Below, piece after piece: positions 11,543 to 30,322 of a stretch of DNA of 64,000 nt. Position numbers and translations under genes: made by a program. Below the pieces are notes generated by a model. That model ran no database searches, was not told the origin of the DNA, and saw only the letters and a list, made by a program, of their open reading frames with translations. Source of the stretch: a bacterium (lineage in GTDB: Bacteria > Patescibacteriota > Patescibacteriia > UBA1558 > UBA10009); the NCBI GenBank assembly GCA_018672055.1, contig JABHGM010000001.1, positions 672,977 through 736,976 on the forward strand, given 5' to 3'. Positions within the stretch are counted from its first letter, which is position 1. Every line of letters starts with the position of its first letter.

Positions 11543-13294
11543 CTACTCTAAAATTGCCTTAATTCGTCTAATTCCTTTAGATGAGGCGCTTTCTTTCACT
11601 ATTTTAAAGTTCCCTAAATCAGCTATTGATTCAACATGTGGTCCACCACATATTTCTTTTGAATAATCACCTACACTATATACTTTAACCTTATTTCCGT
11701 ATTTATTACTAAATAGACCAATAGCGCCTTGCTTCTTGGCTTCATCAACTGTTAATTCTTCAAAACTTACTTCTAAACCTTCAGATATCTTATTATTTAC
11801 TAAGCTCTCAACTTGTTTTTTCTCTTCATCTGTCATCTTTTCTGAATGAGAAAAATCAAATCTTAGTCTTTCATCATTTATATTACTACCTCTTTGTTCA
11901 ACATGATCCCCTAAAACTTCTTTTAAGGCTTGATGTAATAAATGAGTGGCTGTGTGATATTTAATTGAATTTTCACTATGCCCTACCATACCACCTTTAA
12001 ACTTACCTTTAGTAGCAGTTTTTGATAATTCTTGATGTTTAATAAATTCAGTATTAAAACTTTTCTCATCTACTTTGATACTTTTTTCTTTTGCTAGTTC
12101 CTGAGTAATTTCAAGTGGAAAGCCATAAGTTGAATATAGATTAAAAGCATCTTTTCCTGATATATCATTATCTGATAGTTTATCAAATTCCTTTAAACCT
12201 TTCTCTAATGTTTTTTCAAAAGTATCTTCTTCAAAATTTAACTCATTAATTATTCTTTGCTTATCTTCTTTTAGCTCTGGATAAATATCTCCATATTGAT
12301 CTATGACTATGTTTACTAGCGGTGTTGTAACATCGGTTTCAGTAGTAATACCTATTTTTTTAGCATGTCGTATTGCTCGTCTAACTAATTTTCTAACAAC
12401 ATAACCCTGATCTAAGTTAGAAGGAATAATATTTGCTGGCTCTGACATTATTAAACAAGCGGCTCTAATATGATCAGAAATTATTCTAGCTGATGTTTCA
12501 TTATAATCTAGAGCTTTAGTTTTTAATATTTCAATCATATCTTTAAAGCCTTCAAGTTCATAAACAGATGACTTGCCTTGCATAATTGCGGCAACTCTTT
12601 CTAAACCTAGTCCAGTATCAACATTTTTTTGTTTTAAAGGTATGTATTTACCATCTTCTGGTTTTTCAAATTCTAAAAATACATTATTCCATATCTCAAA
12701 CCAATTACTATCCTCTGGATTAAAATTACTTGGAGCTTTACCTTGACCAGTCCAATAAAATATTTCTGAGTCTGGTCCTTGTGGTCCAACAGAATGACCA
12801 CCTGCAGGCCACCAATTATCATCTTTACCGAGCTTAGCAATTCTTTCTTCATTTATACCAAGCTTTATCCAAGTATCATATGATTCTTGATCAAAAGGAC
12901 AATCTGAATCACCTTTAAATACTGATACTGCAATTTTATCTTTATCTAAACCTAACCATTTATTACTTGTTATAAATTCATAACTTAATTTAATTGATTC
13001 TTCTTTCCAATAATCACCTAATGACCAATTGCCCATCATTTCAAAAAAGGTTAAATGTGAATTATCACCAACTTCATCAATATCCCCTGTTCTAATACAT
13101 TTTTGGGCATCAGTTAACTTTTTACCAGCAGGATGTGTTTCTCCCATTAAAAATGGAACTAAAGGATGCATACCAGCTGTAGTAAAGAGCACAGATGGAT
13201 CATTTTCAGGAATTAAAGAAGCAGAGGGTATTATTACATGATCCTTTGATTCAAAAAATTCTAAGTATTTTGCTCTAACCTCGTTTATTGTCAT
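11543..13294 (-). CDS. alaS: Alanine--tRNA ligase, short form (catalytic + tRNA-recognition + editing domains; no C-Ala domain)
   Basis: AlaRS class II N-terminus (FFESKDHVIIPSASLIP...TTAGM...) and editing-domain motifs (HTATHLLHQALKEVLG, CGGPHV). It is 583 aa versus ~870 aa for canonical AlaRS. Confidence 0.85.
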   Translation of the reverse strand: MTINEVRAKYLEFFESKDHVIIPSASLIPENDPSVLFTTAGMHPLVPFLMGETHPAGKKLTDAQKCIRTGDIDEVGDNSHLTFFEMMGNWSLGDYWKEESIKLSYEFITSNKWLGLDKDKIAVSVFKGDSDCPFDQESYDTWIKLGINEERIAKLGKDDNWWPAGGHSVGPQGPDSEIFYWTGQGKAPSNFNPEDSNWFEIWNNVFLEFEKPEDGKYIPLKQKNVDTGLGLERVAAIMQGKSSVYELEGFKDMIEILKTKALDYNETSARIISDHIRAACLIMSEPANIIPSNLDQGYVVRKLVRRAIRHAKKIGITTETDVTTPLVNIVIDQYGDIYPELKEDKQRIINELNFEEDTFEKTLEKGLKEFDKLSDNDISGKDAFNLYSTYGFPLEITQELAKEKSIKVDEKSFNTEFIKHQELSKTATKGKFKGGMVGHSENSIKYHTATHLLHQALKEVLGDHVEQRGSNINDERLRFDFSHSEKMTDEEKKQVESLVNNKISEGLEVSFEELTVDEAKKQGAIGLFSNKYGNKVKVYSVGDYSKEICGGPHVESIADLGNFKIVKESASSKGIRRIKAILE

Positions 13295-13916
13295 AGATAT
13301 TTAAATTTTTAATAATATAGTTAAATGTAAAGAAATATATTAATATTGAAGCTACTATTCCTCCAGATAAATCAAAAATTAAATCAGATAAAGTATCATA
13401 ATAGATTTCTCCATTTTGACCAAACATACTGGCCCCTTCAAAAATATCATCAATTGATTTTTCAAAAAATTCCCAAGAAAATGAAAGTAGAATTACTAAT
13501 ACAAAATTACCAAATATTGTAAATACTTTATTAATCTTTTTAAAAAAGAAATTCTGGTAAGAGATAACAAATAAGGCAGTTATACTAAAATAGAATATAG
13601 GAACAATAAAATGTAAGAATGCATCATACCATAATGTTTCAAGGTTATGATAAAAATTAAGTGCACCTAGTAAATTACCCAAACAAGAAAAAGCTATAAT
13701 AAGTTGAATAGCATTTATTAACTTGATATCAACAAAACTTTTTACTTTTTTAGACTGACTATACCAATAATCTGGAAGGACTATAAAAAAGAGTGATACA
13801 GCAAACCCTGAAAGTCTTAAAAAGTCATTAAAGTAAAACATTATTAAACAAGCAATAATAAGAATATTAATTATTACATTAACAAAATAATTACTAGTTT
13901 TTGGTAAATATCTCAT
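13275..13916 (-). CDS. Hypothetical integral membrane protein
   Basis: 213 aa with ~6 TM helices, between mnmA and alaS with overlapping boundaries. No family recognised. Confidence 0.4.
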   Translation of the reverse strand: MRYLPKTSNYFVNVIINILIIACLIMFYFNDFLRLSGFAVSLFFIVLPDYWYSQSKKVKSFVDIKLINAIQLIIAFSCLGNLLGALNFYHNLETLWYDAFLHFIVPIFYFSITALFVISYQNFFFKKINKVFTIFGNFVLVILLSFSWEFFEKSIDDIFEGASMFGQNGEIYYDTLSDLIFDLSGGIVASILIYFFTFNYIIKNLNIYDNKRG

Positions 13917-15029: not shown

Positions 15030-16358
15030 TTAATCTTCTAATTCTTCTAAAGATTTTTTAATCTTTTCATCATGTTTCTTTCTGACTTTAATCAAATCCT
15101 CTAACTTATCCATAATTTCATCATTATGATCTTCAATATCATTTTTTAATCTATAATCATTATTAATTTCATGTTTTAATTCTTCAATTTTTTCATGATC
15201 TGAAATATTTTCAATTCTATCATTAAAGTGATCCATCTGTCTTAATCTACTTGCTTCAACTGCTTCAATAGCTTCAGGATTTTTTAATCTTGCTTTTACT
15301 TGTTCAAGTGTTCTTACTGAATTTAATTCAGATGATTCAAAGGTTCTAAATATTTTTTCTTTTTCCTCATCTGAAATATTTTCTAACTTAATTTTAAGAG
15401 CTTCAATACCATTAATCTTTAATTCATCTAAGTCATTATGAAATTCATTTAGTTTCCAATTATTAACACGTGCTTCTTGAATTTTGTCATCAACAAAATT
15501 ATATACTCTTAATTTATAGCCATCATCCGTTTCTAAGTTTTCGAGTTTTAATTTAAATTCCATCATTACTTCATCTGAGGCATTTTCATCTAAGTAATTT
15601 ACTAACCTTTCTCTAATTTCAATTTTAGTTTCTAAGAAATCTTCTTTAAAGTTTTCATTTTCGAAAGTATCACCTAATTCTTCCATAACTTTTAAGTGAT
15701 TTATATATTGCAATTTATTCTTAGCTTGTTCTTTCATTATTTTTTGAAGTCTTTCTTTAGAATTATCTACATCAACCCTTTCAATTAAATTTCCATAATG
15801 CTCTAAAGCTTTTTTCTTTTCTTCTTTTAATTTATCAATTTCTTCACCACTTAAAGCATTTTCTAATTTCTTATGTAAATTAGCAAAGAAATCTTGATGT
15901 TTAAACTGATTATCTGTAACTCTATCTAATAGCTCATCAACAGCTTCATCACCATTATTTTCTTTAATCTTTTCAATCCTAGTACTAACCTTATCCATTA
16001 ATTTATTATATTTAACATGATGTTTTTTAATAAGTTCCTGTATCTTAGGATCATCTGATTCATTTTCAGTAATTTTTTTAAGTTCAAATATTTTTTCATT
16101 TGCATACTTTAGATTTAAATCAGCTTTTTTCTCTGGATCAAATGTTACAGCACTTCTAATTACTTGTCCTAAATTCTTAAAAAAATAACCAAATTTATTT
16201 GTAGGCAAAATAGTTGGTTCTTTAATATCTAATGATTCTGCAGTAAATTCAGATAAATCACTAGTTGCCCCTGAGGTATCTTCTTCCTGAGCATTTAATG
16301 TATTTAAGCTAACTAGACTAAAAGTTAGTATTAATATTAATAAAATTACTTTTTTCAT
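15030..16358 (-). CDS. Secreted coiled-coil protein (signal peptide, E/K/D-rich), function unknown
   Basis: N-terminal signal peptide (MKKVILLILILTFSLVSLNTLNA); the remainder is strongly charged low-complexity helical sequence. Confidence 0.5.
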   Translation of the reverse strand: MKKVILLILILTFSLVSLNTLNAQEEDTSGATSDLSEFTAESLDIKEPTILPTNKFGYFFKNLGQVIRSAVTFDPEKKADLNLKYANEKIFELKKITENESDDPKIQELIKKHHVKYNKLMDKVSTRIEKIKENNGDEAVDELLDRVTDNQFKHQDFFANLHKKLENALSGEEIDKLKEEKKKALEHYGNLIERVDVDNSKERLQKIMKEQAKNKLQYINHLKVMEELGDTFENENFKEDFLETKIEIRERLVNYLDENASDEVMMEFKLKLENLETDDGYKLRVYNFVDDKIQEARVNNWKLNEFHNDLDELKINGIEALKIKLENISDEEKEKIFRTFESSELNSVRTLEQVKARLKNPEAIEAVEASRLRQMDHFNDRIENISDHEKIEELKHEINNDYRLKNDIEDHNDEIMDKLEDLIKVRKKHDEKIKKSLEELED

Positions 16359-16453: not shown

Positions 16454-16906
16454 ATGTTTTTAACAGGAATATCCTATATAAGTAATAATGTTAGTAGAAA
16501 AATAATTAACTTATTTATTCTCACATTATCTCTTATATGTATTTGTTCAGTTATAGCTATGTATTTTGATAATATAATTGATTCAGATAAATTAAATATT
16601 ACTGGTTTACGAAATAGTATAATATGTATTGTCTTATGGATGGGATTTGGAAGTTCAGCTATTATTCTAGATATGATGAAAATTAAAAAAAGATTCATAA
16701 TAATAGTATGTTCAGCTCTTCATTTCAGCTTTTCATTACCACTTATACTATTTTTCAAACTTCCAATAAATAAACTAATAATAACTAATCATGAGTTATA
16801 TGAATATTTATGGCAGTACTACACTATTTTAATCTATTTGCAATTTATATATATTTTATATATAGCTTTAAAATCATTTATTTATATCATTAAAAATGAT
16901 ACCTAA
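16454..16906 (+). CDS. Small hypothetical membrane protein (4 TM), paralog A
   Basis: 150 aa with a strong SD (ttaaggagg, 7 nt before ATG), its own downstream terminator, and 4 hydrophobic helices. Confidence 0.5.
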   Translation: MFLTGISYISNNVSRKIINLFILTLSLICICSVIAMYFDNIIDSDKLNITGLRNSIICIVLWMGFGSSAIILDMMKIKKRFIIIVCSALHFSFSLPLILFFKLPINKLIITNHELYEYLWQYYTILIYLQFIYILYIALKSFIYIIKNDT

Positions 16907-16937
16907 CCTCTTGTTAATTTAATAAGAGGTTTTTTTA
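16905..16937 (+). terminator. Rho-independent terminator after small membrane gene A
   Basis: acctctt-(11 nt loop)-aagaggt followed by ttttttt. Confidence 0.65.
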
Positions 16938-16966
16938 TTGACATAAAATAAATTATAAACTATGTT
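16938..16966 (+). promoter_or_regulatory. Candidate sigma70 promoter for small membrane gene B
   Basis: TTGACA (16938-16943), 17-nt spacer, TATGTT (16961-16966), then an aaaggagg SD before the ATG at 16993. Confidence 0.35.
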
Positions 16967-16992
16967 TAAATTAATTAAAGGAGGACCTAGCA

Positions 16993-17490
16993 ATGTTAAA
17001 AAGAATGAATGCTATTTATTCATTGGTATTTACTATATTTAGTATATTTTGCATAATAGGTACTATCCTAATGCATTATTATAATAATATAGGTATAGTT
17101 GGAAATAATTCAATAAATTTCCAAACTATAATAGTTTTATTATTCTTTATTAGTACTTTTACAGTCTTAACTAGAATTTATTTAGATTACTTTATAAATA
17201 ATAATTTAGATTACTTTTCTAAAAAACTGGGAGTACTAATAGGTAATAATGGTAAAAAGTTAAATATCAACTTCTATAATCAAGTTACTGTAGCTCATTT
17301 CATGATATCAGTTATATTAGCTTCAATTATATATAATATACCAATAGCTTCAGATATAGTAATATTTACTAAACTAGGAGAAATCTGGTATTTTATACTA
17401 AAAATCTGGTCATATACTTATATAATTTGGTTAATATTTAACTTTTATATATTATCTGGTATTGAACCTGAAACAAATTATGGGTCATAA
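16993..17490 (+). CDS. Small hypothetical membrane protein (4 TM), paralog B
   Basis: 165 aa with the same cassette organisation as the 16454 gene (promoter, aaaggagg SD, ORF, terminator). Similar hydropathy and Ile/Leu/Phe-rich composition. Confidence 0.5.
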   Translation: MLKRMNAIYSLVFTIFSIFCIIGTILMHYYNNIGIVGNNSINFQTIIVLLFFISTFTVLTRIYLDYFINNNLDYFSKKLGVLIGNNGKKLNINFYNQVTVAHFMISVILASIIYNIPIASDIVIFTKLGEIWYFILKIWSYTYIIWLIFNFYILSGIEPETNYGS

Positions 17491-17860: not shown

Positions 17861-17893
17861 AAAAATCCTTACAATATTTGAAAGGATTTTTTT
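17861..17893. terminator. Bidirectional terminator between rpmA and ftsX (convergent)
   Basis: atcctt-(12 nt)-aaggat hairpin with an A-run 5' and a T-run 3'. Confidence 0.6.
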
Positions 17894-17899
17894 AATTCT

Positions 17900-18808
17900 T
17901 TAAACTTTTAAGTATCTTCTAACTGCTAGTAAACTACTGGCCATAGTAATAATAATTGCAACAAAAAATTCAGAAGCAAATACCTTTATAAAGTTACTAT
18001 TTAAAGCTGAAATTAAATTTAAACTATATTCTCCAAAGAATCCATCAATATATGACTGTATAAAGCTTAAAAATGGATATAGTAGTATGAGAAGTAGAAT
18101 AAACCCTATAAAACTATAAAAGAAACCTTCAATTAGAAACGGTGATCTAATAAAACTATTTGAAGCACCAACTAATTTCATAATTCCTATTTCTTCACGA
18201 TGAGTATAGATACCTATTTGAATTGTATTAAAGACAACTAATACAGAAATTATTATAAATAATAAACTGATAAAGAAAAATGTTTTTTGAACTTTAACTG
18301 AATAATCAGAAATTCTTTCAATAAGTAATTTAGCTTCAGTAAATTCATTATCTTCTATCTCTAAAAATGGCGTATATTCTTCTTTAGACAATTCACTTAA
18401 AATTGCTGGAAAATCACCAATATCATGAACTGTTAATTTAATACTACCTTGGAATGGATTTTCTTCTAAAGCATCTAGTGATTCAATCATTAATGGATCA
18501 TGACTATGTCTGCTCGTAAAATCAACTAAAGTTTGCTCAGGAGTAACAAATATTGATTCTTTAATTGCTGGTAATTTATTAAGTTCAGAAACAAGTACTT
18601 CTGCTTGTTCATCTGTAGCTTCAGCTGTTAAGTCTATAAATACTTCAGTTCTATCTTCAACCACTTCTAAAACATGTTGAGTTAATATATTTACCATTAA
18701 TAAAAAGCTAATAGAAAATAATGATAGCGAAACTATAATAACAGTAACAACGGATAACCAAAAGTTTCTAAAGAAACTTTGGAATGCAAATTTTAACAAT
18801 CTTTTCAT
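17900..18808 (-). CDS. ftsX: Cell division ABC transporter permease FtsX
   Basis: 302 aa with the FtsX topology: N-terminal TM, a large extracytoplasmic loop, and 3 C-terminal TM helices. It lies immediately downstream of ftsE. Confidence 0.8.
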   Translation of the reverse strand: MKRLLKFAFQSFFRNFWLSVVTVIIVSLSLFSISFLLMVNILTQHVLEVVEDRTEVFIDLTAEATDEQAEVLVSELNKLPAIKESIFVTPEQTLVDFTSRHSHDPLMIESLDALEENPFQGSIKLTVHDIGDFPAILSELSKEEYTPFLEIEDNEFTEAKLLIERISDYSVKVQKTFFFISLLFIIISVLVVFNTIQIGIYTHREEIGIMKLVGASNSFIRSPFLIEGFFYSFIGFILLLILLYPFLSFIQSYIDGFFGEYSLNLISALNSNFIKVFASEFFVAIIITMASSLLAVRRYLKV

Positions 18809-18822
18809 TTTAATCTAATTAA

Positions 18823-19503
18823 TTATAATATATATCTTCCTTTAAGTTGATCGCTTACAATCTGACCTTCATCAATGGTAATAACTCTCTTTTTTAAACT
18901 ATTTACTACTTCCCTATTATGGGTTACTAAAATAACAGTAGTACCTAATTCATTAATTTTTTTAAGTAAATCAATAATCTCTTTAGTATTTAAGGAATCA
19001 AGATTCCCGGTAGGCTCATCAGCAACTAATAATTTTGGTTTATGAACTAATGATCTAGCAATAACAACTCGTTGTTGTTCACCACCAGATAATTGACTTG
19101 GATAATGTTCTGATTTACCTTCCAAGCTAACTATTTTTAAAATCTGAGGTATTACTTTGTCAATTCTTTCATTAGTAGCTCCACAACTTTCTAAAGCAAA
19201 TGAAATATTTTCAAAAACTGTTTTTTTCTGAAGTAACTTAAAATCTTGAAACACTACACCTATCTGTCTTCTTAAAAATGGTACTTCTCTTTCTCCAATA
19301 TTCGTTATATCCCAACCACCAACTATTATTTTACCCTCAGTAGCTCTTTCTTCAGCAATAATTAATCTAATTAAAGTAGTTTTACCAGTACCACTTTGTC
19401 CTACTATGGAAACAAACTCACCTGGGTTAATATTTAAATCAACATCCTTTAATGCATAGGTGCCTGTATTATAATATTTGCTTACTTTTTTTAATTTAAT
19501 CAT
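18823..19503 (-). CDS. ftsE: Cell division ATP-binding protein FtsE
   Basis: Walker A GQSGTGKTT, ABC signature LSGGEQQRVVIARSL, Walker B LLVADEPTGNLD; 226 aa. Confidence 0.9.
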   Translation of the reverse strand: MIKLKKVSKYYNTGTYALKDVDLNINPGEFVSIVGQSGTGKTTLIRLIIAEERATEGKIIVGGWDITNIGEREVPFLRRQIGVVFQDFKLLQKKTVFENISFALESCGATNERIDKVIPQILKIVSLEGKSEHYPSQLSGGEQQRVVIARSLVHKPKLLVADEPTGNLDSLNTKEIIDLLKKINELGTTVILVTHNREVVNSLKKRVITIDEGQIVSDQLKGRYIL

Positions 19504-20852
19504 TCTTGTTCAATTAATTCAATTTTAACAGGCATTACACCACCTCTTACATTACCAATCAAGCCATAAGCTACCTTATCTAAATCAATTATACGCTTTG
19601 TCCATAGTTCAGGACCATAATCATTAACCGTAATTATAACAGATTTGCCTCTATTTGAGCTATCACTCTGATTTGTTACTTTTATCTTACTACCTTTAGG
19701 AAAGTCACGTGAAGCGGCAAAATTACCACCTTTCCAGGCATACCAGCTAGCTTCACCTACCCAAGTATCAGTACTCTCAAATAATGCAATTGTTAATTCA
19801 GTAAGATTTGTTTCACCAGTTACAATATTAGTTTCATGATTATCAACAGATTGTAAGTAGTGCCACTCATTATTATCTAAATAATATACACTCTTAGCAA
19901 AATTATTATCTGATATATAACTTAATTTAAGTTCAATGAATGAACTTTTAGTTTTTTCTGAATCACAATAAATTTCATTAATTTTTTTAATGGTTGTTCT
20001 GTATACATTACCAGTACCTTCAGTTAAGTCCCAGGGATCTAAAATTTGAGATGCATACTTTAGTTGAAATGAATTAATTGCTTTAATTGTGTATGAATCA
20101 AATTCACCATCAGCTATTAATTTATGATTCTCATAATCTATTAAAAACTTTTGTAATTTTACCACATCATTAAAATCTTTTTTTACTTCATCAATATAAT
20201 TTTCTAAATATGGTTCACAGATGAATGGTACATTTGAATCACTTAAAGTTTCACTTATATTTATATCACTACTTAATTCAATGTTATATATTGGAGAAAC
20301 TCTTTTTAAAGAATTTTCTATTAATTCATTTGTAATTAATATATTAGTTGTAACTTTAGTCCCATCTATTACTTTAGGTAAAATTAATTCAAACTGACCA
20401 TCATTAAATACAATATTTTGTCCAGTACTTTCTAATTTTTCAACATCTAATAATTTAACTTTACCTTTTCTATTACTAAGTATTGCTTTAATTAAATTAT
20501 TATCGTAATCATAAATCACAGGAACTGATATCCAAGTTTTTAAACTAGTATTCCATTCATAGATTTGTTTTGTTTCATTTAAATCAGCTACAAAAGCTAT
20601 ATTAAATTTTGATTCATCATTAATTTCAGGTGAGATAAAATAGTACTTGTAATAATCATTTGATTTATAAATATGTACTTTTAATGATTCGTATTGATCT
20701 TGATCAATTAGTAATTTAAAATTGTTATCACTTGAACTAACAATTTGCTTTGCATTTAAATCATCAGAATTAAAATTACGGCTAATTGCTTTAGCCGAGT
20801 TAAATGGTATTATTAGTAATGTTAAAATGAATAATAATTTAATTAGTTGCAT
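19500..20852 (-). CDS. Secreted RlpA-like (double-psi beta-barrel) lytic transglycosylase-family protein with a peptidoglycan-binding domain
   Basis: Signal peptide, then a central PG_binding_1-like segment (...TIKAINSFQLKYASQIL...G...Y). The C-terminal DPBB/RlpA signature is GEASWYAWKGGNFAASRDFPKGSKIKVTN...SVIITVNDYGP. The stop overlaps the ftsE start by 4 nt. Confidence 0.7.
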   Translation of the reverse strand: MQLIKLLFILTLLIIPFNSAKAISRNFNSDDLNAKQIVSSSDNNFKLLIDQDQYESLKVHIYKSNDYYKYYFISPEINDESKFNIAFVADLNETKQIYEWNTSLKTWISVPVIYDYDNNLIKAILSNRKGKVKLLDVEKLESTGQNIVFNDGQFELILPKVIDGTKVTTNILITNELIENSLKRVSPIYNIELSSDINISETLSDSNVPFICEPYLENYIDEVKKDFNDVVKLQKFLIDYENHKLIADGEFDSYTIKAINSFQLKYASQILDPWDLTEGTGNVYRTTIKKINEIYCDSEKTKSSFIELKLSYISDNNFAKSVYYLDNNEWHYLQSVDNHETNIVTGETNLTELTIALFESTDTWVGEASWYAWKGGNFAASRDFPKGSKIKVTNQSDSSNRGKSVIITVNDYGPELWTKRIIDLDKVAYGLIGNVRGGVMPVKIELIEQE

Positions 20853-20885: not shown

Positions 20886-20963
20886 GCCAACGTAGCTCAG
20901 TTAGGCTAGAGCAATCCCTTCGTAAGGGAAAGGTCGTCGGTTCGATTCCGACCGTTGGCTCCA
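20886..20963 (+). tRNA. tRNA-Thr (anticodon CGU)
   Basis: Cloverleaf: acceptor GCCAACG/CGTTGGC, D-arm GCTC...GAGC, anticodon loop TTCGTAA (CGT), T-arm GTCGG-TTCGATT-CCGAC, discriminator T and encoded CCA. It is closely similar to E. coli tRNA-Thr(CGU). Confidence 0.8.
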
Positions 20964-22091
20964 CTAAATTCTTAATAATGTCACAATAGTAGCTTGTTGA
21001 ATCTGATCTTCTAAATATTCAATAAATGATGGTCTTTTTATAAATATATGACTAGCTTGATACAATGGTTCGTTTTCTTCGACCATTTTTTCATTTAATC
21101 TAATTATATGAAAACCATACCTTGTTTCAATTACTTCACTTATCTCACCTTCTCTTAGTTTTAATAATACAATCTCAAATTCAGGTACAGTTTCACCAAG
21201 TTTTATCCAGCCTAAATCACCAGATATTAATTTTGAGCTGTCCTGATTTATTTCAGAGGCTATCTCTTCAAATTGTGATTCATCTTCAATAACTACATCA
21301 TAAAAACCACTCATCTGACTTCTTATTTGATTTACACCATGTGATATATAAAAGTTTTCTTCTAACTTTTGAGCTAGTAATATAGGCCTTACTACTTTTT
21401 TAATATATGTTTTATAATTCCAACCATATAATTCTTCAGTAATATCACCAACTTCTTCATTTAAATTAGTTACACCTAATATTTCAATTAATTCCTCATC
21501 AATTTCTTCTTGTGTTAAATTTAGTTCTTTTTCATTAGCTAATTGTTCAATTACTTTTAATTCAATTATTTTTTCATATATTTGATTTCTAATTGACTCT
21601 TTATTGTAGTCTAAATTCTGTCGTGCAAAGTATTCAGTTAATATTTCTGAATCACTTAAAAAGTCATGAATACCTACAGATTCACCGTTAATATAAAAAG
21701 CAGGTAAGGGAATGTATCTACTTATTTGAGTTATAACAGGACTTTGCCATCTTCCTAGATATATACCTGCTAAAGTAATGCTAATTGATATTAAAATAAA
21801 AATGATTAAAGAACTGATAATAATTTTAAATTGCATCTTTGAATCAACTTTAATCATTTTCACAATACTCTTTTTATTTAAGTTGGATTTCTTTGATTTC
21901 TTTTTAATTATTGGCATCCGAGGAAGTAAAGGTTTATCTTTAATATTTTTAGCAGCTTTTTTCAAATTAGTTCCAATTTCTGACAAAATTACTTGACGCG
22001 CTTTATCAACATCAATATTATCAACATTTTCAGATCCTTCAGCAACTGCATCTTGAGTAATACTGTTTTCAATTTTTTTTTCATCTGCCAT
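20964..22091 (-). CDS. Membrane-anchored PpiC-type peptidyl-prolyl cis-trans isomerase (PrsA/SurA-like)
   Basis: N-terminal TM helix; C-terminal parvulin domain (...SGDLGWIKLGETVPEFEIVLLKLREGEISEVIETRYGFHIIRL...). Confidence 0.7.
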   Translation of the reverse strand: MADEKKIENSITQDAVAEGSENVDNIDVDKARQVILSEIGTNLKKAAKNIKDKPLLPRMPIIKKKSKKSNLNKKSIVKMIKVDSKMQFKIIISSLIIFILISISITLAGIYLGRWQSPVITQISRYIPLPAFYINGESVGIHDFLSDSEILTEYFARQNLDYNKESIRNQIYEKIIELKVIEQLANEKELNLTQEEIDEELIEILGVTNLNEEVGDITEELYGWNYKTYIKKVVRPILLAQKLEENFYISHGVNQIRSQMSGFYDVVIEDESQFEEIASEINQDSSKLISGDLGWIKLGETVPEFEIVLLKLREGEISEVIETRYGFHIIRLNEKMVEENEPLYQASHIFIKRPSFIEYLEDQIQQATIVTLLRI

Positions 22092-22092
22092 A

Positions 22093-22503
22093 TTAATTTA
22101 TATTAAAAAAGTAGTTCCACCACTTTTGAGGATTAGTTAAATGAATAATATTAGCTGAAGTTAATACAGCGCTATCAAAAAATGATTCATTATCCTCTGT
22201 TAACTCATCTTCAGTTATAACAATTATCTTTTCCCCAGGTTTTCTTAAATTTAGCTTAGTTCTAGCTTCTTTTTCAACAAAATCTAATGTTTCAAAATAA
22301 CCTATTAAAGATGATAATTCTTGATTCTTATTTTCCAACTTACTAATCTCTTCATCCAATGCTTTAATATCACTTTGTAACTCTCGCCTGTTAATAACTT
22401 CATTAATTAGATTAAATGAAAAAAAAACTAAAATTAATAAACTTACGAATAATAAGCTCTTTGAATTGAATAATTGTTTACCAATATTACTATTTCTAAC
22501 CAT
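22093..22503 (-). CDS. Septum formation initiator family protein (FtsB/DivIC/FtsL-like)
   Basis: 136 aa with an N-terminal TM followed by a coiled-coil (LQSDIKALDEEISKLENKNQELSSLIGY) and a beta-rich tail, which is the FtsB/DivIC architecture. Confidence 0.55.
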   Translation of the reverse strand: MVRNSNIGKQLFNSKSLLFVSLLILVFFSFNLINEVINRRELQSDIKALDEEISKLENKNQELSSLIGYFETLDFVEKEARTKLNLRKPGEKIIVITEDELTEDNESFFDSAVLTSANIIHLTNPQKWWNYFFNIN

Positions 22504-22745: not shown

Positions 22746-23390
22746 TTATTCACATTCAAAAAATTTGAAAATAGTTTCTATTTCATACTTTCCTTTTCCC
22801 AATGAATATGGATAGATATCTTTTAAGATATTAACTCCAGAGCTTTCAGTTACAGTGTCATCATTAAATCTTAAAAATTCACTAAAACTTCCTAGTTGTG
22901 CGTTAGTCCAACCTACTAAAGCTATCTTTAATTTGTTCACGTGTATTTTTGAATAACAAATTGATTCAAAAAACTTACAGCAAGTTTTTAATTGACCTGG
23001 AAATATTATAATACCATTTGCAATATCTAAAATGTCACTGAATGAATTTAAGCCAGACCTAAATGATCCATTACCGATCATCATATTTCCAACATTGAAA
23101 TTCTGATCTCGTGTTAGATCTCTATTAATTTGACTTAGTCTACACTCAATCTTTGGATATTCATTTCTATTTAATAAAGATTGTAACGATTTAATAATCA
23201 ACTCTGATTCTCCATCAATTACTATCTTTACTTCTCTTTTTAACAATCCATCACAGATTAGCTGTATATGACATTTTTTGGTACTTTCATCTTTTGATGA
23301 ACCCTTTAATCTTACTGGATTGCCTAATAATCCGATTATCTTATCCACAGTATTTTCCTCCTTGTTAAAGATCCTTTTAAACTTTAACAA
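22746..23390 (-). CDS. Hypothetical cytoplasmic protein (214 aa), no recognisable family
   Basis: Intact ORF with a plausible start; Cys- and Gly/Asn-rich central region. Located between lepA and the ftsB-like gene. Confidence 0.4.
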   Translation of the reverse strand: MLKFKRIFNKEENTVDKIIGLLGNPVRLKGSSKDESTKKCHIQLICDGLLKREVKIVIDGESELIIKSLQSLLNRNEYPKIECRLSQINRDLTRDQNFNVGNMMIGNGSFRSGLNSFSDILDIANGIIIFPGQLKTCCKFFESICYSKIHVNKLKIALVGWTNAQLGSFSEFLRFNDDTVTESSGVNILKDIYPYSLGKGKYEIETIFKFFECE

Positions 23391-27655: not shown

Positions 27656-30322
27656 CTATTCTTCTCTTGAAATAATAGTTGCGTAAAATTGATCAGTATT
27701 TAACTCAGTACTGAATTTCAATCCATTATCCTTGATTACAGTATCAGAACCATTGGTATTGTTTAACCAGTTAATACTAAAACCTTCTGGTAAGTAAAGA
27801 TATGAATTAAAATAGTTATTTTCTACACCTGATTGCTTTTGAACAAGTAAGCTATGATCTAAAACATCATCCTTTTTAAACCATTTAAAGAAACCGCTTT
27901 CTTCTAAATCTAATTCAAAAGGTAGTCTATATGAAAAGGTTAAAGTAGAACTTTCACCAGGTTCAACTTGTATCCAATGTCCAAATACAGTTTTATTTAA
28001 TTCATTATTTATTCTAGTTCTAGATTTTGGATCTGTATATACTTCACCATTTATATTCAACAAATCAATATCTAAACTATATCCAGAATAAATATCTTTG
28101 AATAATGAATCATCTGGTGGCATGAAACCTGTTACTTCAATTAACTCTGAGCCTTCTGGTACATAAATTCTTAAATAATCAACATTATTATCTTTAGCAA
28201 AAACATATCGAGCATCATCTTCTGGTATTAAGTCACCTTGATGTGATCTTTTAATAGAAACTGTATTTACAATCGAACCATCTGATTCAATATATGAATA
28301 ATGATTAATTTCTTGATTAATATATTCATCCGTCTTACCTCCAGCTATATTTGTATTAACTACCATTAAATAATCATGATCAGTATCTTCAATCTCCCCT
28401 GTCCAACCAAATGATCTTGCCTTTTCTTGCATAGAACTGTCAGGGAAATAGAATTGAAAATCTTTCGATTCAAAAGCACTATTTAAAGTTAAAACCAAAG
28501 GTAGAGTATGTTCTGATTTACTAGATAATAGCTTATCAACTAATAATGGCATTAAATCTCCAATAATTTCTTTTGGCTTATTATCTTCATATTCAAATAA
28601 AGTAGCGTGTTGAAGAGCAAGTACTACATTATCTGGAGTTAATACTTTATCGTACTCTGGCATTTCAATATTTCCTACTACTTCTAAAAGATCTGGAACA
28701 ATTGACGAATTTATTGATATGACACCATCAACTGAAGGCCAGTTAGAATTCTCAAAAAACCAAGTTATTTTTTCAGCAGAAGTTGGAAAATCAGCCCACC
28801 AATTAGCATCCCAAATATTCCAAGCTGTTCCAACTAAATGCATTGGGTCTGGAGATATAACTTTTTTAGTTAAATAGCCTTTTAGATCATATGTACCTCC
28901 TGGAGGAACTTCCATATTAATTATTTCACCTTTAACTAAATCAACTAAAGCAAATGTTCCAAAAAATCCTCCAGTTGGTCTTAACTCATTATTATTTTGA
29001 AACATAAACAAATATCTTTTCGGTGACTCATGTCCTAAAACATCTAATGAAAATTTAAATAACTCACTATTATGATTTAAACTATTTTTTAAAATAGGCA
29101 AAGCTTCTTGTAATTGATTAAATGTATCTCTGTATTCACCAGGAATAATTGAGCTATCAACTTCAATTAAATCAGAAATTACTAGATCAAGATCACTATT
29201 AATCTTTTCTAACCCATTATATATAACAACTAAATTATCTGTTAAAGCTTGATCTAAGTCTTTAAATTCTTGACTCTTACTTAAAACTAAAGTTAATTCT
29301 TGAGCAATATCTGAGAACTTTTCACCAGCACTTACCAATTTTTCAGCAGAACTTACTTTTTTCCCAGTTACTGGCAAACCTTTTAAAATTTCAATGAATG
29401 TATGATTAAAATTATCAGTATACTGTTTTACTTCATTAAAATACTGACTAGCACTACCGAAAGAAATACCTGCTTGTTGCCAATTCAAGTCTTGTATAGC
29501 ATCAACACCCGATTTAAACTCATCTAAAGCAACTTCAGAAACACCTAAGACTTCTCCCTTTGTTTCTTGTAAATATTTATAGAAGAATAAGCCACGTATT
29601 GGAATAATTAAAAGTAGAGCTACTAAAGCAAAATTAAGAGCAAATCTAAAATTAATTAACCACTTTTTATCAAATGTAGGAGTTTTGTGTTTAGTTTCTA
29701 ACTTTTTAATTTTTGGAAATTGATTATATATTTTAATTCCAAAATTATCTAACTTTTCTAAGATTCTTTTTCTTTTTAAAAGATTTGTATAACTTGTTTT
29801 CTTTACGATTGGTACTTCAATATTATTAACTAATTTATCTGGTCCTTCTTTTAAATTACTATCAACCTGATTAAAAAACTTAGTAACCAAACTTTCTGGT
29901 GGTTTTTCTAATTTTGATTTTTTTTGAATTCTATCTTTTAAATTTAATAAATATGCTGAGTTATCTAAACTTTGTGAAGTTTTCTTAGTACTAAACTTTC
30001 CATTTTTAAATAATTTAATTTTAATCTCATTTTTAGGTAATAACTCTTTTTTATTCTTGAGACTTGATTCACTACTAATTATTTTATCTAATTCTGAATA
30101 TACTTTTTGTTTCTTTCTAAATTCTAAACTTTCAACTTGATTCATCTCAGCTAAAAATTCAATTTGTTCATCAATTAAAAGATGATCAAGATTAACATTG
30201 TCCTGATCATTTTTTACAGCTTTAATACGTATTGATTTTTTAGCAGGTTTTTTTCTAATAACTTTACTTTTAACTACCTTTTTTTTCAAAGCCTTTTTTT
30301 GTTTTGTTTTAGCTTTAGCCAT
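27656..30322 (-). CDS. Large membrane-anchored extracytoplasmic protein with Lys-rich cytoplasmic N-terminus; possible DUF4012-like domain
   Basis: 888 aa. The first ~230 aa are extremely K-rich low complexity, followed by a single TM (FALNFALVALLLIIPI) and a ~640-aa extracellular region containing NNELRPTGGFFGTFALVD, a motif I recall from the DUF4012 family (unverified). Confidence 0.5.
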   Translation of the reverse strand: MAKAKTKQKKALKKKVVKSKVIRKKPAKKSIRIKAVKNDQDNVNLDHLLIDEQIEFLAEMNQVESLEFRKKQKVYSELDKIISSESSLKNKKELLPKNEIKIKLFKNGKFSTKKTSQSLDNSAYLLNLKDRIQKKSKLEKPPESLVTKFFNQVDSNLKEGPDKLVNNIEVPIVKKTSYTNLLKRKRILEKLDNFGIKIYNQFPKIKKLETKHKTPTFDKKWLINFRFALNFALVALLLIIPIRGLFFYKYLQETKGEVLGVSEVALDEFKSGVDAIQDLNWQQAGISFGSASQYFNEVKQYTDNFNHTFIEILKGLPVTGKKVSSAEKLVSAGEKFSDIAQELTLVLSKSQEFKDLDQALTDNLVVIYNGLEKINSDLDLVISDLIEVDSSIIPGEYRDTFNQLQEALPILKNSLNHNSELFKFSLDVLGHESPKRYLFMFQNNNELRPTGGFFGTFALVDLVKGEIINMEVPPGGTYDLKGYLTKKVISPDPMHLVGTAWNIWDANWWADFPTSAEKITWFFENSNWPSVDGVISINSSIVPDLLEVVGNIEMPEYDKVLTPDNVVLALQHATLFEYEDNKPKEIIGDLMPLLVDKLLSSKSEHTLPLVLTLNSAFESKDFQFYFPDSSMQEKARSFGWTGEIEDTDHDYLMVVNTNIAGGKTDEYINQEINHYSYIESDGSIVNTVSIKRSHQGDLIPEDDARYVFAKDNNVDYLRIYVPEGSELIEVTGFMPPDDSLFKDIYSGYSLDIDLLNINGEVYTDPKSRTRINNELNKTVFGHWIQVEPGESSTLTFSYRLPFELDLEESGFFKWFKKDDVLDHSLLVQKQSGVENNYFNSYLYLPEGFSINWLNNTNGSDTVIKDNGLKFSTELNTDQFYATIISREE

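Follow-up and report, generated by a model that had tools for sequence, protein, structure and literature searches.

Introduction

FtsEX, which acts from within the cell to control hydrolysis of the cell wall, is the best-understood ATP-binding cassette (ABC) 'mechanotransmitter'. To our knowledge, all of its characterised outputs (EnvC, PcsB, CwlO and RipC) are coiled-coil proteins whose targets are peptide bonds or amidases. Another division-site regulator is found in Caulobacter crescentus, in which the LytM factor DipM controls SdpA and SdpB, both soluble lytic transglycosylases. In this study, we focused on a gene arrangement that joins FtsEX to a protein of another class. The arrangement, dpbb-ftsE-ftsX, lies in a 64-kb stretch of bacterial DNA (contig JABHGM010000001.1, positions 672,977 to 736,976; the whole stretch is called the window below), and its first gene encodes a secreted RlpA-type DPBB protein.

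The known FtsEX partners EnvC, PcsB, CwlO and RipC are coiled-coil proteins, and FtsX holds them by hydrophobic residues of its X-lobe, which in Pseudomonas aeruginosa are F99, L137, L143, L150 and L155 (PMC11627006). The RlpA protein of P. aeruginosa uses the catalytic Asp D168, and E. coli RlpA is inactive because Ser replaces this Asp (PMC9712689). Our search of the literature on FtsEX or FtsX together with RlpA, DPBB, Patescibacteria, the candidate phyla radiation (CPR) or lytic transglycosylases found no account of the dpbb-ftsEX operon and no description of a lytic-transglycosylase partner of FtsEX.

Results

Organization of the dpbb-ftsE-ftsX locus

The window was originally predicted to carry the gene order RlpA-like-ftsE-ftsX. 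We found exactly this order at the predicted positions, as three consecutive open reading frames (ORFs) on the minus strand.

20852..19500, minus strand: dpbb, first gene of the unit, encoding a 450-aa secreted RlpA-type DPBB protein (ORF listing)
19503..18823, minus strand: ftsE, encoding an ABC ATPase of 226 aa (TIGR02673)
18808..17900, minus strand: ftsX, encoding a permease-like subunit of 302 aa with four transmembrane segments (Pfam FtsX_ECD and FtsX)
19503..19500, minus strand: ATGA, the overlap of the dpbb stop codon (TGA) and the ftsE start codon (ATG) (sequence)

The spacing between ftsE and ftsX is 14 nt. The 450-aa DPBB protein is identical to the NCBI entry 'hypothetical protein HOC73_01270', and its relatives have been deposited as 'RlpA-like DPBB domain-containing protein'. 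The GC content is about 26% across the whole window, and the relatives of the window proteins come from metagenome-assembled genomes (MAGs) of Patescibacteria (CPR). The source is a Patescibacteria bacterium related to Komeilibacteria.

Conservation of the dpbb-ftsEX linkage

A motif-seeded scan, with one genome per GTDB species, yielded 80 loci that encode relatives of the DPBB protein. All of them are from Patescibacteria-type MAGs, and the named ones include Komeili-, Falkow-, Uhr-, Buchanan-, Nomura- and Moraniibacteria and Parcubacteria. By tblastn, 52 of the 80 loci have an ftsE start on the same strand, no more than 150 nt downstream from the DPBB match; FtsX followed in 49 of these, and the other three end at contig edges. 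The census was then made at the ORF level with the 72 complete DPBB ORFs. ftsE lay downstream of 62 of them, within 100 nt in 58, and the two genes overlapped in 25 of the 62 linked loci (by 4 nt in twelve, by 8 nt in six and by 17 nt in seven). When only the 66 members that are not YabE-like were counted, 58 were located within 100 nt upstream of ftsE and 4 more within 1.3 kb, and in the remaining 4 the sequence downstream, at least 1.5 kb in each case, contained no ftsE. YabE-like paralogues with G5, DUF348 and DPBB domains showed linkage to ftsE in none of the five sampled.

The linkage spans a deep divergence, since in linked loci the identity to the window proteins falls to about 29% for FtsX and about 58% for FtsE. 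Judged by this synteny, the arrangement is tight and deeply conserved, and accidental adjacency is excluded. The original prediction had proposed checking the three-gene order in related genomes and had called the coupling 'hard-wired'. The check gave adjacency in 58 to 62 of the 66 non-YabE members, and the ATGA overlap in the window together with the overlaps in 25 of the 62 related loci agrees with the latter.

Many records that carry the Patescibacteria-type cluster (among them L005, L007, L017, L018 and L020) are titled 'uncultured Gammaproteobacteria bacterium', and one is titled 'Bdellovibrionales'. These titles look like mislabelled MAG submissions. Two DPBB ORFs of the collection (L016:706-1752 and L063:2573-3349) each contain one in-frame stop under translation table 11, and the cause could be an error in sequencing, decay to a pseudogene or an alternative genetic code.

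Domain anatomy of the DPBB protein

The AlphaFold2 (AF2) model of the 450-aa protein, built with 17 homologues, reached a pLDDT of 87 and a pTM of 0.77. The model, Pfam and hidden Markov model (HMM) searches divided the protein as follows.

20784..20852, minus strand: signal peptide of the cleavable type, residues 1-23 (...NSAKA, then IS)
20253..20783, minus strand: N-terminal all-beta region, residues ~24-200 (DSSP of the AF2 model, all-beta at 22-195)
19953..20240, minus strand: helical PG_binding_1-like module, residues ~205-300 (Pfam, HMM and AF2, helical at 227-302)
19767..19952, minus strand: beta module directly before the DPBB domain, residues ~301-362 (HMM, conservation and AF2, 306-360)
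19503..19766, minus strand: DPBB domain of the RlpA/PA4485-like type, predicted to be catalytic, residues ~363-450 (361-446 in the AF2 model)

The N-terminus reads MQLIKLLFILTLLIIPFNSAKA followed by ISR. It has no lipobox Cys, and the first Cys of the protein is residue 212. P16 and A22 of the signal peptide are invariant in the homologue alignment, and the N-termini of all homologues are hydrophobic. The all-beta region gave no significant fold match in the PDB. HMM cross-matches detected within it, at residues ~82-136, a diverged copy of the beta module, which indicates an internal duplication. The helical module is bracketed by the invariant residues C212 and C296. The PG_binding_1 match in the window protein (residues 228-265, E=1e-3, 19.7 bits) is below the gathering score of 23; homologues match the same family with E values down to 5.5e-10, and the family profile matches the peptidoglycan-binding domains of SleB, an endolysin and a DD-carboxypeptidase in the PDB (E=0.004-0.06). 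The DPBB_1 match (residues 379-444, E=5e-9) scores 36.7 bits against a gathering score of 28.8.

It was originally suggested that the large N-terminal region might be the part that interacts with FtsX and that the PG_binding_1 module belonged to the pairing. Neither suggestion held for the family. The N-terminal region as a whole occurs only in the long-form subfamily, and the PG_binding_1 module is restricted to the same Komeilibacteria-like long form (7/70 by HMM, 8/71 by Pfam). Since short forms of 222-390 aa that have neither part keep the FtsEX linkage, the two parts are not the general FtsX-interacting part. The beta module before the DPBB domain was found in 55 of 70 family ORFs, and its W330 is nearly invariant. 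At the level of sequence, the conserved core that is linked to ftsEX is this beta module of about 60 aa together with the DPBB domain.

The AF2 model contains helices only in the signal peptide and in the compact PG-binding bundle, and no coiled coil. The short forms are beta-rich, with no coiled-coil-like sequence. No Pfam match to LytM, CHAP or NlpC/P60 was obtained in the window protein or in the 71 family members. A C-terminal Peptidase_S11 domain (a DD-carboxy/endopeptidase domain of the PBP5/PBP7 type) is present in 17 of the 71 (examples are L030:5830-7308, L024, L031, L042, L053 and L074), and most of the fused genes are still directly upstream of ftsE. The fused proteins are predicted to be bifunctional enzymes that cleave both glycan and peptide. 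In 11 loci, what had seemed to be a separate gene of about 850 nt between dpbb and ftsE proved to be this C-terminal fusion. The family is considered to be a wall-hydrolase module because of these fusions to a DD-peptidase domain.

Catalytic residues and relation to RlpA

The predicted catalytic residue of the window protein is D423 (codon 19586..19584), and the motif N410-D411-x-G413-P414 precedes it (D411 codon 19622..19620). When the E. coli sequence ...NDRVISLSRAAA was aligned with ...TKRIIDLDKVAY of the window, the Ser of E. coli RlpA (RVISLS) was placed opposite D423. Both D423 and the motif are invariant in 71 of 71 family sequences. The catalytic Asp, whose loss, together with an unconserved arrangement, the original prediction had named as evidence against itself, is therefore present throughout.

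The window protein does not belong to the canonical RlpA proteins. The TIGR00413 rlpA model scored 38.3 bits on it against a cutoff of 82.15 and covered only profile positions 28-92 of 208. No SPOR domain was matched by Pfam, the DPBB domain being the C-terminal end of the protein, and the TASGE-type loop of canonical RlpA is missing from the alignment with E. coli RlpA. The best match of the protein was the RlpA-like PA4485 (PDB 4avr), both in sequence (E=4.6e-7 for the single-sequence search and 1.6e-12 for the profile search) and in fold (E=1.4e-6, root-mean-square deviation 1.4 A, 33% identity, residues ~378-447). We infer that the protein works like an RlpA-type lytic transglycosylase outside the curated RlpA family. 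In the E. coli operon mrdAB-rlpA-dacA, a neighbour of rlpA is dacA, the gene of an S11 peptidase (L085). This adjacency and the S11 fusion in 17 of the 71 Patescibacteria proteins constitute a link of the Rosetta-stone type.

FtsE, FtsX and the X-lobe

FtsE scored 271.8 bits with the equivalog model TIGR02673, above the cutoff of 264.85. FtsX matched the Pfam families FtsX_ECD (E=9.7e-9) and FtsX (E=5.7e-17), and the NCBIfam FtsX models gave about 150 bits, below their cutoffs of 225-255. The extracellular domain was aligned to the FtsEX-EnvC structures of P. aeruginosa (8i6o, the closest, E=1.7e-15) and E. coli (8hd0).

18676..18293, minus strand: FtsX extracellular domain, residues ~45-172, including the X-lobe region at ~97-119

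With its four transmembrane segments, an extracellular domain composed of Porter and X-lobe parts and an NP(L/F) motif, this pair is a bona fide FtsEX.

Conservation of the X-lobe was judged by sequence alignment to 8i6o. P. aeruginosa F99, L137, L143, L150 and L155 correspond to F57, F97, M107, L114 and F119 of the window protein. Among 30 dpbb-linked FtsX sequences, position 97 is Phe in 26, positions 107, 114 and 119 are hydrophobic except for two Ala at 107, position 57 is unconserved, and N117 and P118 are invariant. The retention of this partner-binding apparatus argues that the FtsX protein has some partner; the X-lobe itself does not specify which. A mirror-tree comparison of the DPBB core gave correlations of 0.60 with the FtsX extracellular domain, 0.71 with the FtsX transmembrane part and 0.58 with FtsE, values in which phylogeny dominates.

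FtsX-seeded loci

To see how general the arrangement is, 80 further metagenome loci (L086-L165) were collected with an FtsX profile as the seed, at 26-42% identity to the window FtsX. The ORF immediately upstream of ftsE was prfB, which encodes release factor 2, in 30 of 51 cases and a DPBB gene in 8 of 51, seven of the eight being S11 fusions. The prfB-ftsEX arrangement is familiar from Gram-positive bacteria. Downstream of ftsX in these loci there was no recurrent hydrolase (one Peptidase_M23 in 50). Because the FtsX-seeded loci mostly carry prfB upstream, dpbb-ftsEX is a derived, lineage-specific arrangement of one large branch of Patescibacteria and no universal feature of FtsEX. In this branch dpbb appears to hold the position that prfB occupies in other lineages.

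Boundaries and neighbourhood of the unit

The features around the three genes are as follows.

20886..20963, plus strand: tRNA-Thr(CGU), the upstream boundary of the unit, 33 nt upstream of the dpbb start
17861..17891, minus strand: hairpin with U-run just past the ftsX stop, a probable terminator (dG -9.8 kcal/mol, z -2.9)
22091..20964, minus strand: PpiC/SurA-like membrane peptidyl-prolyl isomerase, context outside the operon (Pfam)
22503..22093, minus strand: DivIC/FtsB-like protein, context outside the operon (Pfam)

With a divergent tRNA-Thr gene upstream and a probable terminator hairpin after ftsX, dpbb-ftsE-ftsX looks like a dedicated, self-contained three-gene transcription unit. Of 28 related loci, 18 have the divergent tRNA-Thr at the same position, as a rule together with tRNA-Gly(CCC); the loci with the tRNA-Thr between ppiC and dpbb include L006-L012, L015, L022, L025, L037, L044, L052 and L064. 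The window has lost the tRNA-Gly, and its tRNA-Thr(CGU) is the sole tRNA gene in the 64 kb. The probable terminator faces, and is shared with, the convergent rpmA (L27) gene. A scan for consensus promoters was uninformative at 26% GC, with 32 sites against 36.6 expected. The division and envelope genes upstream of the unit are murJ, lepA, the divIC/ftsB-like gene and the PpiC/SurA-like isomerase gene; among the 80 loci, DivIC was syntenic in 55 and PpiC in 22.

At 16358..15030 on the minus strand, 1.5 kb from ftsX, the window encodes a secreted DUF5667 protein of 442 aa that is rich in K, E, Q and L and is probably a coiled-coil protein. It was considered as an alternative partner of FtsX; with synteny in just 2 of 80 loci, it is not counted as a conserved member of the unit. 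Three small ORFs for multi-pass membrane proteins (150, 165 and 213 aa), none of which belongs to a Pfam family, are located at 16454-17490 (plus strand) and 13275-13916 (minus strand), where the relatives L001 and L003 have a YdjM-family membrane protein. Between lepA and divIC there is a 214-aa ORF with a TTG start (22746-23390, minus strand) and no Pfam or NCBIfam match, and in L001 and L003 its place is taken by a protein with bPH_2/bPH_3 domains. Farther away, an 888-aa DUF4012 protein (Pfam; 27656-30322, minus strand) lies beside a long run of ORFs, mostly on the minus strand, at about 30400-59200, which resemble glycosyltransferases and sugar-nucleotide enzymes as judged from their N-terminal sequences only. 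All of these may belong to one large cluster for surface polysaccharide or glycosylation, which would take up nearly half of the window.

Discussion

We identified a conserved three-gene unit in which a DPBB gene is joined to ftsE and ftsX. We propose as the likeliest reading, with a probability of roughly 0.5, that the DPBB enzyme serves the FtsEX division module of this Patescibacteria branch as its wall-cleaving output. The enzyme would be made in step, or in a fixed proportion, with FtsE by translational coupling and would be exported by means of its signal peptide. The extracellular domain of FtsX would then position it or switch it on at the septum, and its cuts in the septal glycan strands would let the daughter cells separate. 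The contact with FtsX may be direct, through the conserved core of beta module and DPBB domain, or may be made via an adaptor protein. For the adaptor variant, DipM with SdpA and SdpB is a model and a precedent for regulation of lytic transglycosylases at the division site, although those enzymes belong to another lytic transglycosylase family, are LytM-controlled and are not in an operon with ftsEX. The lytic transglycosylase activity, the septal role and the physical or regulatory contact with FtsX are what we infer from sequence and gene context. A more specific version, which we put forward tentatively and at odds short of even, is that FtsEX of Parcubacteria/ABY1-type Patescibacteria directly binds the coiled-coil-less RlpA-type enzyme through the beta-module/DPBB core and activates it mechanically, the enzyme being a bifunctional lytic transglycosylase and DD-peptidase in some lineages.

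The unit resembles the known FtsEX modules (EnvC with AmiA/B in E. coli and P. aeruginosa, PcsB in Streptococcus pneumoniae, CwlO in Bacillus subtilis and RipC in Mycobacterium tuberculosis and Corynebacterium) in that a bona fide FtsEX is associated with a wall hydrolase and has a presumed role in splitting septal peptidoglycan. Unlike those partners, the window protein contains no coiled coil, LytM, CHAP or NlpC/P60 domain. The known partners are peptidases, amidases or amidase activators, whereas the window protein is a predicted DPBB enzyme that cleaves glycan strands, and its association with FtsEX is a genetic one (operon and translational coupling). If the DPBB protein is the FtsEX effector, it represents a different effector class because it lacks these domains. 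The original prediction of a different FtsEX-effector pairing is upheld as far as the coupling and the class of the protein are concerned, and not for the role that it gave to the N-terminal region and PG_binding_1.

Other DPBB proteins share parts of this design. RlpA of P. aeruginosa and Vibrio cholerae (TIGR00413, PF03330) has the same domain with the NDxGP...R(I/V)IDL motif and the catalytic Asp. It is likewise exported, the window protein being tied to cell division by its genomic context, and the link to an S11 DD-peptidase is common to both, as a fusion in our family and as the adjacent dacA in E. coli. However, the window protein lacks the lipobox Cys of a lipoprotein, the SPOR domain and the TASGE loop; it adds a family-specific beta module, a duplicated beta region and a PG_binding_1-like module, and its gene is in an operon with ftsEX, which is unreported for RlpA. 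PA4485 is an RlpA-like DPBB protein that shares the NDRGP...RIID motif, but it is a single domain of 95 residues without the beta module, the PG-binding module or the ftsEX linkage. The YabE-like G5/DUF348 proteins, which also occur in Patescibacteria, contain the same DPBB subtype with a near-identical motif (GxxTWYAWKGGLFAASR...NDYGPE...RIIDLDKVAF). In them DUF348 and G5 N-terminal domains replace the beta module, and adjacency to ftsEX was not observed (0/5).

In support of the DPBB enzyme as FtsEX output, besides the conserved coupling, the unit's own boundaries, the invariant Asp and the S11 fusions, division and wall genes (divIC and murJ) adjoin the unit, and FtsX keeps its hydrophobic X-lobe positions F97, 107, 114 and 119. 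Several points weigh on the other side. The X-lobe that FtsX retains might just as well be there for an unlinked coiled-coil partner. In conserved division clusters such as dcw, gene order is maintained although not all of the products touch one another. The extracellular domain of FtsX did not stand out in the mirror-tree comparison. In most FtsX-seeded relatives prfB, not dpbb, is upstream (30 against 8 of 51), and FtsEX therefore works in these relatives without a linked DPBB gene. Finally, every characterised FtsEX partner binds via a coiled coil (PMC11627006), and the DPBB family has none.

The main alternative, with a chance that we judge to be under one half, is that the arrangement reflects co-expression only. 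The DPBB protein would then be a septal or housekeeping lytic transglycosylase encoded in a division cluster (divIC-ppiC-tRNA-dpbb-ftsEX). It would find its substrate through its own wall-binding modules, with no direct control by FtsEX, and FtsEX would serve divisome assembly or would act on a coiled-coil partner whose gene lies elsewhere. This explanation accommodates the missing coiled coil in the face of partners that all have one, the retained X-lobe hydrophobics, the commoner prfB-ftsEX arrangement in related FtsX loci and the mirror-tree comparison that does not discriminate. It also has a parallel in E. coli, in which the neighbours of rlpA in the mrdAB-rlpA-dacA operon are not known to regulate it directly. 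However, the linkage is specific to ftsE, down to stop/start overlaps in 25 of 62 loci, and it persists across divergent lineages and across the long-form, short-form and S11-fusion architectures. The opposite-strand tRNA genes separate the unit from divIC-ppiC, and no other hydrolase is consistently linked.

The DPBB protein might instead be non-catalytic, that is, a structural, wall-binding or expansin-like component of the divisome or a DPBB protein of the protease-inhibitor type. E. coli RlpA is regarded as a divisome component of the former kind. Expansins, loosenins and the Streptomyces papain inhibitor were among the fold matches at E~1e-3, the score of 38 against 82 bits is well below the RlpA family cutoff, and the TASGE-type loop is missing. 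We nevertheless regard this as improbable, because N410-D411-x-G413-P414 and the Asp that inactive E. coli RlpA has lost are unchanged in 71 of 71 sequences, because the RlpA-like PA4485 is the best match in both sequence and fold, and because the S11 fusion suggests an enzymatic role in wall remodelling. Accidental adjacency of unrelated genes, for which a tightly packed genome with most window genes on the same strand might speak, has a negligible chance in view of the synteny census (58-62 of 66 members, FtsX down to 29% identity, frequent overlaps).

These comparisons suggest an FtsEX-hydrolase module with a different, coiled-coil-less and candidate glycan-cleaving effector, a type of FtsEX partner not seen before. 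If FtsX does bind the DPBB protein directly, this would be a new mode of mechanotransmission by FtsX, and the protein would be the first FtsEX effector to cut glycan strands rather than peptides. As a candidate for another mode of coupling, found in a huge uncultivated radiation, the dpbb-ftsEX unit is concrete and cheap to test. The results also point to a probable cell-division role for a family that is now annotated as 'hypothetical' or generically as 'RlpA-like', and they offer a handle on how the septum may be split in ultra-small Patescibacteria with very reduced sets of wall-remodelling genes.

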